From Actinomycetes bacterium (lineage in GTDB: Bacteria > Actinomycetota > Actinomycetes > Prado026): DNA of 64,000 nt. Positions 248 to 5,165 of this stretch are shown here, piece by piece. Under the pieces are notes generated by a model. The model was not told the origin of the DNA. It did not search any database and saw only the letters and a program-made list of their open reading frames with translations. A program made the translations under genes and the position numbers. Positions within the stretch are counted from its first letter, which is position 1; each line of letters starts with the position of its first letter. The stretch is taken from NCBI GenBank assembly GCA_038210415.1, contig JBBQWS010000006.1, forward strand, positions 28,650 through 92,649, read 5' to 3'.

Positions 248-1435
248 TTACTCGGTGCGGAGGGCGACGACGGGGTCGAGCTTGCCGGCCCGTCGGGCCG
301 GGAACACCCCGAAGAACACGCCTACCGCGACCGAGACGCCGAAGGCGAGCGCGATCGACCACCAGGCGACCTGCACCGGTAGGTCCGGCACGAGGGCGTG
401 GCCCAGCAGCGAGGCGCCCGCGCCGAGGCCGATGCCGACCACGCCGCCGATCGTGGTCAGCAGCACCGCCTCGATGAGGAACTGCGCCAGGATGTCGCGC
501 TGCCGGGCGCCCAGAGCTTTGCGCAGCCCGATCTCCCGCGTCCTCTCGCGGACCGACACGAGCATGATGTTGGAGACGCCGACCCCGCCGACGAACAGCG
601 AGATCCCGGCGATCGCCGCCAGCACCAAGGTGAGCAGCCCGAGGATGGTGCCGACCGCCCCCAGGATCTGGGTCTGCGTCACGGCGGAGAACTTCTCGCC
701 CGGGTACTTCGACCGCAGCCCGTCGAGCAGCGAGCTCTGCAGGGCGGGGATCGCGTCGATCGTGGGCGCGCGCACGGCGAGCGCGTCGATCCGGGTGACG
801 CCGTAGAGCCGCTGGGCCGCCGTGATCGGGATGTGGATCTCGGTGTCACGGTTGATCCCGAACGCCGAGCCCACCTGCGTGAACACCCCGATGACCCGGA
901 ACCGGACGCCCCGGATCGAGACCTGGCGACCGAGCGGCTCGACCTCTCCGAAGAGTGCGCGCGCCGTCTCGGGACCCAGCACCACGACCCGGCGCCGGGT
1001 GTCGACGTCGACCTTGCTGATGTAGCGTCCGCGCGCGACCGGCCGGTCGAAGACGATGGGGACGTTCTCGTTGGTGCCGTTCACGGTGACGTACGTGACC
1101 TTGGAGCCGACCCGGACCTCGGACGACGACGTGGTCGTCGCCGCGACGAGGGTGCGGTCGCCGACGATCCGACCCAGCAGGTCGACGTCCTCCAGGCTGA
1201 GCTGGCTGATCGCAGGCGCGGCACCGAACGAGCCCGAACCGGGGAAGACCAGAATCAGGTTGGAGCCGAGGCCCTCGACCTGCGCCTCGACCTCGGCCTT
1301 CGCGCCGCTGCCGATCGCCACCAGCATGACCACCGCGGCCACGCCGATGATCACCCCGAGCATGGTCAGCGCGGACCGGAGCCGGTTGGCCCGCAACGCG
1401 TCGACGGCGGCACCGAACGCCTCGCCGAACCTCAT
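248..1435 (-). CDS. MacB-like ABC transporter permease (N-terminal TM, periplasmic core domain, C-terminal FtsX-type 3-TM domain)
   Basis: 395-aa ORF. The N-terminus MRFGEAFGAAVDALRANRLRSALTMLGVIIGVAAVV is typical of the MacB/FtsX family, and the C-terminal region is FtsX-like. Last gene of a 4-gene minus-strand operon. Confidence 0.85.
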   Translation of the reverse strand: MRFGEAFGAAVDALRANRLRSALTMLGVIIGVAAVVMLVAIGSGAKAEVEAQVEGLGSNLILVFPGSGSFGAAPAISQLSLEDVDLLGRIVGDRTLVAATTTSSSEVRVGSKVTYVTVNGTNENVPIVFDRPVARGRYISKVDVDTRRRVVVLGPETARALFGEVEPLGRQVSIRGVRFRVIGVFTQVGSAFGINRDTEIHIPITAAQRLYGVTRIDALAVRAPTIDAIPALQSSLLDGLRSKYPGEKFSAVTQTQILGAVGTILGLLTLVLAAIAGISLFVGGVGVSNIMLVSVRERTREIGLRKALGARQRDILAQFLIEAVLLTTIGGVVGIGLGAGASLLGHALVPDLPVQVAWWSIALAFGVSVAVGVFFGVFPARRAGKLDPVVALRTE

Positions 1436-1473
1436 GGGACGAACCTCATGGGTCGAACCTCATGGGACGAACC

Positions 1474-1482
<9 letters not shown>
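1427..1482. repeat. Tandem repeat: 14-bp unit GAACCTCATGGG[A/T]C x4 (minus-strand reading GTCCCATGAGGTTC) spanning the ABC ATPase stop and the permease start.
   Basis: Units at 1427-1440, 1441-1454, 1455-1468 and 1469-1482. Each unit carries CCCATGAGG, so on the minus strand each supplies an ATG overlapping a TGA. This gives three 5-codon mini-ORFs (MRFVP*, MRFDP*, MRFVP*) before the real MRFGEAFG start at 1435. Confidence 0.9.
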
Positions 1483-2162
<680 letters not shown>

Positions 2163-2166
<4 letters not shown>

Positions 2167-3530
2167 TTCGTACCGACCTGCATCCCCTCGGTGACCTTGT
2201 CGGCGCCCTTGACCACCACGGTGTCCTGCGTGGTCAAGCCGGACGCGACCTGGATCAGCGCGTCGCCCTGCGCACCCAGCTCGACGTCACGGCGCCGGGC
2301 CACCCCGCCTTCGACGACCCACACGGCGTCGCGCTTGCCGTCGCGGAACACCGCCGCCGCCGGCACCGAGACGGCATCCTTGGCGGTCAGCACCTTGAGC
2401 GAGACGACCGCGGACATACCCGGTCGGGGTACGGGGGCGCGCTCTCCGGTGCTGGTGACGCCCGGGTCGAGCGAGAGCCGCACGACGTAGGAGACGCCAC
2501 CTCTGCTGGACGTCGTCGGCGCCAGGTCGACCGAGGTGACGATGCCGGTGTACGTGACCCCGGGGACAGCGTCGAAGTCGACATCGGCTGCGACACCTGG
2601 CCGCACGGTGAGGATGTCGGTCTCGTCGACGGAGACAGCAAGGGTCAGCGCCGACACGTCGGTGACGGTGAGCAGGCTGGTACCGGCCGACACCGGGGTG
2701 CCGACCTCCAGGACGCCGACCACCGACGCGTTCGAGCCGGCGCCGGCACCACCGAGCAGCGACTGCGCTGCTCCCTGCACGGAGGCCGGCAGCTGCGAGA
2801 GCAAAGACGATGTGCTGTTCGGCGAGCTGCCGCCGGAGACTCCACCAAGGACCACCGTGCCGGCGATCGGTGCCTTGACCACGAGCGCGTCGACGGTCGC
2901 CTGTGCCGCTGCGAGGGCAGCTCGGGTCTGCGCCCGTTGCGCGTCGGCCAGCGACTGCGCCGCCCGGTTGATGCCGGCCAGGCCCGAGTTGGCCTGGGCG
3001 AGCGCCTGCCGGGCGGCGGCCTGCGCCGAGGCGTACTGCCCTTCGGCTGTCGCGATCTGGGTGAGTGCCTGGGCCTTGAGACCGGCATCGGGGATGGCGG
3101 CAGCGGCCGTCCTCGCCGCGTCGAACGCCCGTTTGGCCGTCACGTCCGCCTGGTCGAGCGCGCCGCCGCTGACGGACCCGACGGAGACCGACCCAGTGTT
3201 CGAAGCCCTGGCGTCGGCCTGCTTCGCGGAAACGAGGGCGGCTTGGGCCGAAGGGCTGGCGATGCGCAGGAGCAGGGCGCCGGCCTTGACCTTGACACCG
3301 TCCTTCACCAGGACCGCCGCGACCGCTCCCGCGGTCGGCGAGGTCACCGTGGCGGTCGCCCGGGCGACGACGCTGCCCGGCGCCTGCACGACCTCCGTCA
3401 CGGTGCCGAGGGCGACCCGGGCGGTACGGATGTCGGGCGCGGGGGTGTTGCTGCAAGCAGCCAGCACGAGAACTGCGGTCGCTGACGAGGCGATCACGAG
3501 AAGGGAGCGTCGGGGAAGAGTGGGCTGCAC
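2163..3530 (-). CDS. HlyD-family periplasmic adaptor / membrane fusion lipoprotein (MacA-like)
   Basis: The real gene is the C-terminal 455 aa of the 709-aa ORF. The GTG start shares 1 nt with the TAG stop of the upstream membrane-protein gene. The N-terminus MQPTLPRRSLLVIASSATAVLVLAAC has signal-peptide and lipobox (LAAC) character. Long Ala/Gln-rich coiled-coil, then a beta-barrel C-terminus typical of HlyD/MFP proteins. Confidence 0.8.
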
Positions 3531-4327
3531 TACCTCATCGTAGGTTTCGCGGACCGGTCCGGCAGACCGGGGCCGACCCCGCCGGTCGCCTGCCAGGAGA
3601 GTCCGGCCCCAAGGAGTGCCACGAGCAGCGCCCCGACGAACGCACCGTGGTCGGTCTCGAGGACCAGCCCGGCCATCGGCACTGCGACCAGCTGAAGCAC
3701 CACACTGGCCGCGACCGCTCCGCAGCACGCAACAGCCGCCACCGGGGCCAGCCGGCTGGCCAGGACCAGACCAAGACCCCAGGGCAACGAGTACAGCAAG
3801 GCGAACGCACCCAGGGACGTGAAATCGGTCAGCTGCGGGTCGCCGCCCGCGATCACCCACGGCAGCGAAACCGCGACCACCACGCCGATCAGGGCGACGA
3901 CCCCCTCGGCCCAGGTCCACCCAGTCACGTCGACGACCCCCGACCGCACGAGCTCGCGCAGACAGATCGACGTGGCTGTCAGCCCGGCTGCTGCCAGCAG
4001 GGCCGCGAGGGACCGGAGAAAGACCAGGCCCTCGCCTCCGCCCGCCATGCCGGTCAACGGCTCCCAGTGCTTCACCGCCACGACGCCGAGCCCGGTGAGC
4101 TGCAGGGCGACGACGACGCCGCCTGCGAGCGCACCCGCGCGCAGCTGGCCGGCCGGGCGGGCCGCCATCACGAGCCCGACGCCCAGCAGCGCAGCGGCGA
4201 GCAACAAGCTGGTCCAGGGGTAGAGCCGAGGTGCGTCGTCCAGGACCACGGCATTGGGGATCGCGACGACGGCGAGCGCAGCGACCCCGCACCAGCCAAG
4301 CGCGAGCCCCGCGCGCGACCGGGTCAT
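3530..4327 (-). CDS. Polytopic integral membrane protein, function unknown; first gene of the efflux operon
   Basis: Start chosen at MTRSRAGLALGWCGVAALAVV, internal to the 345-aa ORF. About 8 hydrophobic segments; no recognisable motif. Confidence 0.5.
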   Translation of the reverse strand: MTRSRAGLALGWCGVAALAVVAIPNAVVLDDAPRLYPWTSLLLAAALLGVGLVMAARPAGQLRAGALAGGVVVALQLTGLGVVAVKHWEPLTGMAGGGEGLVFLRSLAALLAAAGLTATSICLRELVRSGVVDVTGWTWAEGVVALIGVVVAVSLPWVIAGGDPQLTDFTSLGAFALLYSLPWGLGLVLASRLAPVAAVACCGAVAASVVLQLVAVPMAGLVLETDHGAFVGALLVALLGAGLSWQATGGVGPGLPDRSAKPTMR

Positions 4328-4358: not shown

Positions 4359-5165
4359 TCAGGCCTGACCGGAGGCGAGCTCACGAGACCGGTCGCGCGC
4401 TGCTTGCATCGCGGACAGGAACGCGGCCCGCACCTTGTGGTCCTCGAGCTCGCGCACTGCCGCCGCGGTGGTGCCGGCCGGCGACGTGACGTTCTCACGG
4501 AGCACCGTCGGATGCTCCCCTGTCTCGCGCAGCATCTTTCCCGCGCCGACGAGCGTCTGGACGACAAGCTCGTTCGCTGTCGCGCGGGGCAGCCCGAGGT
4601 GCACGCCCGCCTCGATCATCGACTCGACGACGAAGAAGATGTACGCGGGGCCAGACCCGCTGATCGCCGTGACGGCATCCTGCTGCTTCTCGGGCACCCG
4701 GATCACCTTGCCCACAGCAGCGAGCAGCGCCTCGGCCTCCGCCAGGTGCGCCTCGTCGCAGTGCGAGCCGGCCGAGATCGCCGCCATGCCCTCGTCGACC
4801 AGGGCGGGGGTGTTCGGCATGACCCGCACGACCGGTGTTCCCGTGGCCAGCCTCGCCTCGACGAATGAGGTCGTGATGCCGGCCGCGAGCGACACGACCA
4901 GCGCGCCCGGCCGGACGTGGGGGGCGATCTCGTCGAGCACCCCGCCCATGTCCTGTGGCTTCACGACCAGGACGATGGTGTCGGCCTTCGCGGCCGCCTC
5001 GACGTTGCCGAGCACCTCGACGCCGTACCGCTCGTTCAGCTCGATGGCGCGCTCCGGGCGCCGCTCGGCGACGACCAGCTCGTGCACCCGCCGGCCGGAG
5101 CGCAGCAGCCCGGACAGCAGCGCCTCACCCATCACGCCAGCGCCGACGACAGCAACCAGTGCCAC
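4359..5165 (-). CDS. proC: Pyrroline-5-carboxylate reductase
   Basis: N-terminal Rossmann motif VAVVGAGVMGEALLSGL. The MPNTPALV, SGSGPAY and C-terminal SPAGTT motifs are all characteristic of ProC. Confidence 0.9.
   Translation of the reverse strand: MALVAVVGAGVMGEALLSGLLRSGRRVHELVVAERRPERAIELNERYGVEVLGNVEAAAKADTIVLVVKPQDMGGVLDEIAPHVRPGALVVSLAAGITTSFVEARLATGTPVVRVMPNTPALVDEGMAAISAGSHCDEAHLAEAEALLAAVGKVIRVPEKQQDAVTAISGSGPAYIFFVVESMIEAGVHLGLPRATANELVVQTLVGAGKMLRETGEHPTVLRENVTSPAGTTAAAVRELEDHKVRAAFLSAMQAARDRSRELASGQA

Follow-up and report, generated by a model that had tools for sequence, protein, structure and literature searches.

A tandemly reiterated start/stop junction linking ATPase and permease genes in a MacA/MacB-type exporter operon of an actinobacterial genome

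In this study we describe an array of four tandem 14-bp units at the junction between the ATPase and the permease genes of a MacA/MacB-type exporter operon, in a 64,000-nucleotide (nt) stretch (the window) of contig JBBQWS010000006.1 from an Actinomycetes bacterium (assembly GCA_038210415.1). The array is read directly in the sequence at positions 1427-1482 of the window, on the minus strand, and each unit is a self-contained stop/start, with four ATGA overlaps in series. In its closest relatives the same junction is present as a single copy. The array is probably a near-neutral product of slippage that survived a filter on reading phase, and what selection appears to keep is unbroken translation across the junction and not the repeat.

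Read from 1482 to 1427 on the minus strand, the units follow one another as GTCCCATGAGGTTC GTCCCATGAGGTTC GACCCATGAGGTTC GTCCCATGAGGTTC, and then GGCGAGGCG. Tandem Repeats Finder reported the array at 1426-1482 with a period of 14, 4.1 copies, 95% matches and a score of 107, which was the top score among its 55 rows for the window. When the unit was searched at up to 2 mismatches, 4 occurrences were found in the 64 kb, all of them within the array, against 0.54 expected, and none of 100 shuffled controls reached 4; at this threshold there were no dispersed copies of the unit elsewhere in the window. The four tandem units had already been described in an earlier, sequence-only reading of this DNA, as had the three ATGA-linked five-codon open reading frames (ORFs) MRFVP, MRFDP and MRFVP between the ATPase stop and the permease, and our analysis agrees with it on both. 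That reading also gave one variant unit, differing at position 2, which is correct, but named the base as C; it is an A, in agreement with the Asp which the same reading had noted. The variant is the third unit (1454-1441, GACCC...) and its A gives the Asp of mini-ORF 2. Each unit holds three permease codons (ATG AGG TTC = M-R-F) and not the two formerly counted. The ATPase ends ...DTGLVP at the TGA 1476-1474, inside unit 1, and the fourth ATG (1435) opens the 395-amino acid (aa) permease, MRFGEAFG.... By geometry, a change in copy number leaves both the ATPase stop and the permease frame intact, and the previous claim that the frame would never be shifted is thus right. As in MIRUs (mycobacterial interspersed repetitive units), the array is a tandem repeat inside an operon, with ORFs overlapping the flanking stop and start codons.

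The comparison with the closest relatives was based on 23 contigs encoding permeases 94-96% identical to that of the window, which were obtained from JGI, ENA and Logan and represent several different samples and assembly programs. With an ATPase identity of about 90%, these relatives count as other lineages at the species level, and all of them (23/23) have one single-copy NTGA junction (N, any base) with colinear flanks, e.g., ...GACACCGGGGTCGTGGC GTG AGGTTCGGCGAGGCG. Because a single NTGA junction is present in every one of these contigs, the array is derived and lineage-specific, the window having three extra copies of its own junction relative to them, and the proposal that a native coupling junction had been reiterated is borne out. 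The fourth ATG is the true permease start, as had been supposed, because homologue lengths and N-termini agree: the permease homologues have 394-395 aa at 99-100% coverage, with the exception of one 384-aa entry at 97%, and those of the 94-96% relatives begin V/M-R-F-G-E-A-F-G, positions 2-4 being variable in distant orthologues. The ATPases of the closest relatives have 230 or 237 aa and that of the window 230 aa; neither the ATPase product nor the N-terminus of the permease is altered in the window. The permease protein of the window was found in one NCBI record only (P0001), and the nearest named records were metagenome-assembled genomes (MAGs) labelled Mycobacteriales (L061, 93% identity, partial match) and Kineosporiaceae (73-75%). 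The ATPase tails of L179 and L419 have about 7-8 more codons after DTGL before the NTGA (...DTGLVEPAEPDQK and stop in L179, with an ATPase call of 237 aa). In addition, a ACCGGCCT(C/T)GTC stretch is common to L179 and the window, which suggests that L179 is the nearest sampled lineage to the state of the window before the duplication.

Across actinobacteria, the junction was analyzed at 95 loci with at least 59% permease identity, in which the ATPase stop and the permease start were located independently by tblastn. It was a plain NTGA in 76 of them, L023 and L058 among these being resolved by hand, had a 14-nt overlap in one (L040) and carried an insert of 8-358 nt in 18. When the overlapping start/stop links (NTGA or TGATG) were followed from the ATPase stop, all 18 inserts were found to be tiled end to end by 1-3 overlapping ORFs landing exactly on the permease start; in 3 of the 18 the projected permease start was 3-18 nt off, and the chain ended on an ATGA in each. 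Neither an untranslated spacer between ATPase and permease nor an in-frame N-terminal extension of the permease was found at any of the 95 loci. The signal common to the family would be conserved continuity and not a conserved repeat.

Clear reiteration of this junction has also occurred independently in two other genera. In Spirillospora sp. CA-255316 (L067, complete chromosome CP192047.1) a 14-bp unit is present three times, as ATGAGGTACGCGGA GTGAGGCACGCGGA GTGAGGTACGCGGA..., giving MRYAE and VRHAE, each closed by a stop, and then the permease VRYAES.... Nonomuraea sp. NPDC050202 (L039) has 17-bp units in 4.8 copies, which are partly decayed. Decayed two-copy repeats were found in Actinomadura L019 and L025 (period 14) and in L086 (period 17), and L038 (11 nt) may be another decayed two-copy form and may share its origin with L067. 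The mini-ORFs of other lineages have 3-6 codons in short inserts and are longer in others (MRYAE, VRHAE, VRPG, VRHP, VNRR, VRP, MMTARP).

The extent to which such tiling may be due to chance was assessed with two nulls. When insert interiors were shuffled, single-link chains stayed complete in 94-100% of the trials (53-60% for the two such inserts of ~110 nt), as GC-rich sequence has few stops, and the result was non-trivial only for multi-link arrays (0.001 for the window and 0.047 for L067). Since this null is nearly uninformative for single-link inserts, it was replaced by a second one, in which the length (within 4 nt either way), the content and the base preceding the stop were all drawn at random, and by an argument on the period class. 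Under the second null tiling was obtained in 10-30% of the trials per locus, with a product of ~5e-8 over ten putatively independent events and of ~1e-6 (hand multiplication) for a conservative eight events, the latter resulting from merging L038, which may share ancestry with L067, and L034, which may share it with L036. With respect to the period class, the five clear junction duplications have periods of 14, 14, 17, 14, and 17, all of them 3n-1 (period-only null, (1/3)^5 = 0.004). Two arrays lie over the terminal permease stop region (GAATGA) and have periods of 16 and 10, both 3n+1: a 16-bp unit x4.4 in Actinomadura rudentiformis (L019 3678-3747) and a 10-bp unit x2.9 in Nonomuraea rosea (L015 3672-3700). 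Downstream of them lies a convergent gene or a hairpin and not a coupled gene. Together with the 3n repeats of the ATPase tail (see below), such a pattern would be expected if tandem duplications arise regardless of phase and only those compatible with reading frame and coupling are retained. In a scan of viral contigs for four ATGA sites, none of the 104 period-14 and one of the 110 period-13 matches listed lay between two long ORFs, and they were almost only AT-rich intergenic repeats, a result with no bearing on how general such junction arrays are.

Other variations were observed at the orthologous junction. In several Nonomuraea spp., 1-3 tandem copies of an element of ~111 bp sit precisely at the junction, after the ATPase stop and before the permease start (L012 2260-2500, L013 2150-2500, and L017 2240-2500, with the permease start at ~2501), and the element is single-copy in L006, L015, and L028, just upstream of the permease start. 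An ORF reads through the copies and ends ...GVRP, its stop overlapping the permease ATG (ATGA), and the element resembles a MIRU both in its size and in how it behaves. Within the 6-kb loci examined, the element was found only at the ATPase-permease junction. Nonomuraea thailandensis (L040 2470-2520) is the sole orthologue whose ATPase reads 14 nt beyond the permease ATG (...GCTGATGAGGAGCGGTGA), out of phase and not as an NTGA. Repeats were also read by eye in the ATPase C-terminal tail, in the 70 nt upstream of the permease start, where they appear to be in-frame (3n); they include a 15-bp unit GCTCGGCATCGGACG in Microbispora L078 and similar ones in L052, L049, L048, and L090. The length of the ATPase tail varies between species, and the junction region as a whole resembles a hot spot of small duplications. 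In eight more distant homologues (L077, L096, L100, L101, L104, L108, L126, and L144), two of them labelled Gammaproteobacteria MAGs and the rest metagenome contigs, the frame of the ATPase continues uninterrupted through the permease (with offsets of about -1190 to -1212). These are fused proteins of the MacB type joining the nucleotide-binding domain (NBD) to the permease, an alternative route to 1:1 production.

We propose that the array arose recently, in this lineage alone, when the 14 bp that include the ATGA overlap were duplicated in tandem by replication slippage or unequal exchange. Given a unit length of 3n-1 with an ATGA inside, every copy would regenerate a stop overlapped by a start, and the array would persist because of these two properties of its unit. 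Ribosomes finishing the ATPase would terminate at the TGA 1476-1474 and re-initiate at the overlapping ATG, and would then pass along the three 5-codon ORFs through successive rounds of termination-reinitiation, each at the optimal -4 spacing, helped from unit 2 on by the GAGGT placed 7 nt upstream of each ATG, until the relay ends at the fourth ATG and the permease is made with its normal N-terminus. It has been described that coupling is optimal at -4 to +3 nt and is progressively lost by 30-40 nt (PMC12548453); the chain would swap a single 41-nt gap for hops at optimal spacing. Near-neutrality seems the most likely, given that the array is absent in all relatives and that similar arrays come and go in other genera.

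Several considerations weigh against this interpretation. The array is known from a single assembly of its lineage (P0001, one contig). The geometry, the derived state, the lack of untranslated spacers throughout the family and the phase rule are established; the relay itself and its efficiency are what we infer from them. Moreover, given the right length class the tiling is nearly automatic (0.94-1.0 under shuffling), and the statistical weight depends on the number of events taken as independent (8-10), which is a judgement. Finally, the presence of four copies rather than two, together with the gain of a Shine-Dalgarno (SD) site, could mean that the array is not neutral.

The SD-like sites are a consequence of the junction itself, because the ATGA overlap forces codon 2 to begin with A, so that the conserved Arg is encoded by AGG and a GAGG arises. 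AGG is a rare codon, accounting for 2 of the 54 Arg codons in the ATPase and permease genes, and one of these two is permease codon 2. An SD ahead of a downstream start usually raises the efficiency of coupling or re-initiation (PMC12548453; Huber et al., 2019, PMC6728339). On this basis the duplication could have been adaptive: the ATPase tail would have lost the G-rich tract of its relatives, and the duplication would have placed a GAGGT site, formed from the former start region, 7 nt ahead of the start now in use, restoring permease (re)initiation, with the further copies being slippage noise or a fine upward adjustment. With an assumed anti-SD tail, as there is no 16S gene in the window, the predicted pairing was -7.0 kcal/mol for ATG2-4 and -1.7 for ATG1, and on the same assumption the 17 plain NTGA junctions of the window had a median of -6.4, with only one as weak as ATG1. 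Relatives scored -7.1 and -9.8, from a GGGG tract which is missing in the window, and family-wide the insert-bearing junctions scored stronger than the plain ones (median -8.3 vs. -6.8, Mann-Whitney p = 0.008, ignoring phylogeny). The same GAGGT-7 nt-NTG geometry is present in L067. These values, the rare AGG at permease codon 2 and the usual effect of an SD all favor an adaptive gain; however, the scores depend on an assumed anti-SD, 21% of random positions in the source genome also attain -7, the family comparison does not consider phylogeny, and one extra copy would suffice, which leaves four unexplained. Taken together, we find an adaptive origin of this kind unlikely.

Because each added unit brings a GAGGT 7 nt before the next ATG, the direction of any effect of copy number is ambiguous, and extra units could raise, lower or leave unchanged the permease output. 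The sequence-only reading had suggested that copy number could tune the ATPase:permease translation ratio; a version of this with an attenuating effect is quite improbable in our opinion. It supposes that each unit adds a round of termination-reinitiation with an efficiency below 1, including peptidyl-tRNA drop-off on the 5-codon ORFs, and so lowers the permease relative to the ATPase with the frame unshifted, slippage making this tuning heritable and reversible. The frame-neutral geometry, an array perfect enough to slip (95% matches) and the independent arrays of 3-5 units at the orthologous junction are consistent with it, but the NBD and transmembrane domain (TMD) subunits of MacB-type transporters assemble 1:1 and an under-produced permease would have no obvious benefit. 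In addition, the absence of the array from the 23 relative contigs indicates that it is not a conserved device, its SD-like sites argue for efficient hops, and no copy-number polymorphism was seen among the relatives, which are other species-level lineages. A broader proposal, that reiteration of an NTGAGG junction provides a recurrent and selectable module of stop, SD and start, whose copy number acts as a frame-neutral, slippage-driven rheostat of the ribosome hand-over from ATPase to permease and which arose at this transporter junction in three or more actinobacterial genera independently, is in our view doubtful, although we give it some weight. If true, it would be a quantitative counterpart of on/off phase variation.

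An assembly or sequencing artefact, with a true genome having one junction or a different copy number, would agree with the single assembly available, with the fact that the exact window proteins matched no indexed contig and with the single copy of all relatives. Nevertheless, it is very improbable: the 56-bp array is shorter than a read, the internal point variant of unit 3 is not created by collapse or expansion, the flanks are colinear with those of the relatives, and like arrays are present in isolate genomes (the complete chromosome of L067, and L039). Function of the pentapeptides themselves, for instance as cis-acting products of macrolide- or ketolide-evicting E- or K-peptide mini-genes that clear the ribosome before the permease, must be considered extremely improbable, even though the ORFs have exactly five codons and an M-R-F start and the operon is MacB-like. 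The ketolide K-peptide is reportedly MRFFV, and the consensus of the erythromycin E-peptide is said to be MRLFV. The pentapeptides of the window are an automatic by-product, MRF being the start of the permease and VP the end of the ATPase, and the mini-ORFs of other lineages differ in both length and sequence. Furthermore, with Phe at position 3 and Pro at position 5 they are off the consensus as reportedly defined (Leu/Ile at 3 and a hydrophobic/Val C-terminus). Pentapeptide mini-genes conferring erythromycin resistance are documented (Tenson and Mankin; cited in PMC5239772, PMC5179076), and leucine has been described as a key residue of macrolide-resistance pentapeptides (PMC5239772).

The annotation of the junction and of the genes flanking it is provided in Table 1.

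Table 1. Features of the ATPase/permease junction and of the surrounding operon (window coordinates; CDS, coding sequence).
Feature	Position	Strand	Description	Basis
MacB-type permease CDS	248-1435	-	395 aa; MacB_PCD + FtsX; starts at fourth ATG	ORF table, Pfam, NCBIfam, homologues
Array of four 14-bp units	1427-1482	-	GTCCCATGAGGTTC; units at 1482-1469, 1468-1455, 1454-1441 (variant GACCC...), and 1440-1427	Sequence, Tandem Repeats Finder, unit search
Mini-ORF 3	1432-1449	-	ATG AGG TTC GTC CCA TGA (MRFVP, stop); ATG 1449; TGA overlaps permease ATG	
Mini-ORF 2	1446-1463	-	ATG AGG TTC GAC CCA TGA (MRFDP, stop); ATG 1463, ATGA overlap with mini-ORF 1	
Mini-ORF 1	1460-1477	-	ATG AGG TTC GTC CCA TGA (MRFVP, stop); ATG 1477 overlaps ATPase stop as ATGA; no SD-like site upstream (-1.7 kcal/mol)	
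SD-like GAGGT of unit 1	1471-1475	-	TGA + Arg codon AGG; 7 nt upstream of ATG 1463	
Equivalent GAGGT site	1457-1461	-	Before ATG 1449	
Equivalent GAGGT site	1443-1447	-	Before permease ATG 1435	
ABC transporter ATPase CDS	1474-2166	-	230 aa; GTG start overlaps adaptor stop as GTGA; stop TGA 1476-1474 in unit 1	ORF table, Pfam, NCBIfam
HlyD/MacA-like adaptor CDS, C-terminal part	2163-3299	-	True start uncertain, maximal ORF to 4292; GTGA overlap with ATPase at 2166-2163	

Pfam and NCBIfam identified in this operon a HlyD/MacA-like periplasmic adaptor, an ABC ATPase of the MacB/LolD/FtsE type and a permease with MacB_PCD and FtsX domains (E = 2.8e-40 and 6.2e-24, respectively), the NCBIfam scores being far under the MacB equivalog cut-off. 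Adaptor, ATPase and permease form one co-directional cluster, which is the composition of a MacA/MacB-type tripartite exporter operon. The maximal ORF containing the adaptor (2163-4292, minus strand) has 709 aa, and its N-terminal half is Arg/Gly/Pro-rich, has no domain match and overlaps other long ORFs. The real start of the adaptor is probably much further downstream than 4292, with relatives having 435-456 aa or more. A weak 11-bp repeat was observed at 4281-4315. A rough scan of the window revealed at least 17 NTGA junctions between long ORFs with a high G+C content at third codon positions, 13 of which were GTGA, and according to Tandem Repeats Finder none of the other NTGA junctions of the window is repeated. 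Several of them have a clear GGAG/GAGG 6-10 nt upstream (e.g., 28600, 26927, 15521, and 37790), and coupled junctions in the source genome thus seem commonly to retain an SD.

The Rfam scan gave no match at or near the array. Two sub-threshold matches to actinobacterial small RNAs were obtained, Ms_IGR-5 at 1991-2126 (minus strand, inside the ATPase gene; 18.4 bits vs. a gathering score of 45) and ASdes at 4969-5036 (plus strand; 20.4 vs. a gathering score of 40), and both (E ~0.5) are most likely due to chance. An RNA structure, riboswitch or small RNA was rejected, with a predicted mRNA fold around the array no better than that of shuffled sequences (z = -1.3) and Rfam matches only below threshold, and no internal promoter or terminator was found at the array. 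A programmed -1 frameshift that would yield an ATPase-permease fusion, similar to the fused proteobacterial MacB, was also discarded: there is no slippery heptamer and the array would abort the product after 5 codons. A protein-binding iteron or operator is unlikely for an array which lies within a translated operon junction, has a 14-bp period off the helical phase and is absent in the relatives.

NTGA overlaps are very common in high-GC actinobacteria and few of them have been tested. If the relay works, the junctions described here would offer a natural series of 1, 2, 3, 4, and ~5 units for measuring the efficiency of termination-reinitiation per hop, and the same series would gauge the contribution of the embedded SD and the behavior of very short ORFs in these bacteria. 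That ~95 orthologous junctions are never untranslated and that junction repeats are always 3n-1 constitutes comparative evidence for strong selection on the coupling of the NBD and TMD genes, and for frame arithmetic deciding which slippage products survive. A rule for annotation may also be drawn, namely that an apparently intergenic repeat at a gene junction may be a fully translated relay.

A literature search, whose coverage was incomplete, gave no paper on short, self-derived reiterated coupling junctions. Among the known systems, the array resembles ordinary NTGA (-4) coupling (Huber et al., 2019, PMC6728339; Brown and Wade, 2025) in that each link is a standard ATGA, and the adaptor and ATPase of the operon are likewise joined by a GTGA, but it differs in having four overlaps in series with 5-codon ORFs between them. 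As in the short "delivery" ORFs and bicistronic designs (PMC12548453), a tiny ORF with an embedded SD passes the ribosome via a stop/start overlap, whereas the mini-ORFs of the window are fed by the upstream gene, are reiterated and have arisen by duplication. With the contingency loci it shares a slippage-prone, gene-associated tandem repeat whose copy number is heritably changeable; these loci work on/off by frameshift or promoter spacing, while the array is frame-neutral and no promoter was found at it. The macrolide-resistance mini-genes also have five-codon ORFs and, in the K-peptide as it is reported, a similar M-R-F start; in contrast, the peptides of the window are by-products of a duplication, are not conserved across lineages and depart from the reported consensus.

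The most similar system is that of the MIRUs, which in mycobacteria are copy-number-variable loci of the variable-number tandem repeat type. They are likewise tandem repeats at operon junctions whose ORFs are coupled to their neighbors at -4 nt, and the statement of the sequence-only reading that no example of such a junction had been described must be withdrawn in view of them and of the independently reiterated junctions of L067 and L039. MIRU units have roughly 40-100 bp, are dispersed at many loci and are apparently mobile, whereas the unit of the window has 14 bp, is made from the sequence of the junction itself and occurs nowhere else in the 64 kb; the ~111-bp junction element of Nonomuraea (L012, L013, and L017) is nearer to the MIRUs in size than the array. 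The coupling of MIRU ORFs at -4 nt is thought to permit insertion with very little consequence for expression (Supply 1997, cited from Brown and Wade, 2025, PMC12548453). On this comparison we would class the array of the window as MIRU-like in its working but not as a MIRU.

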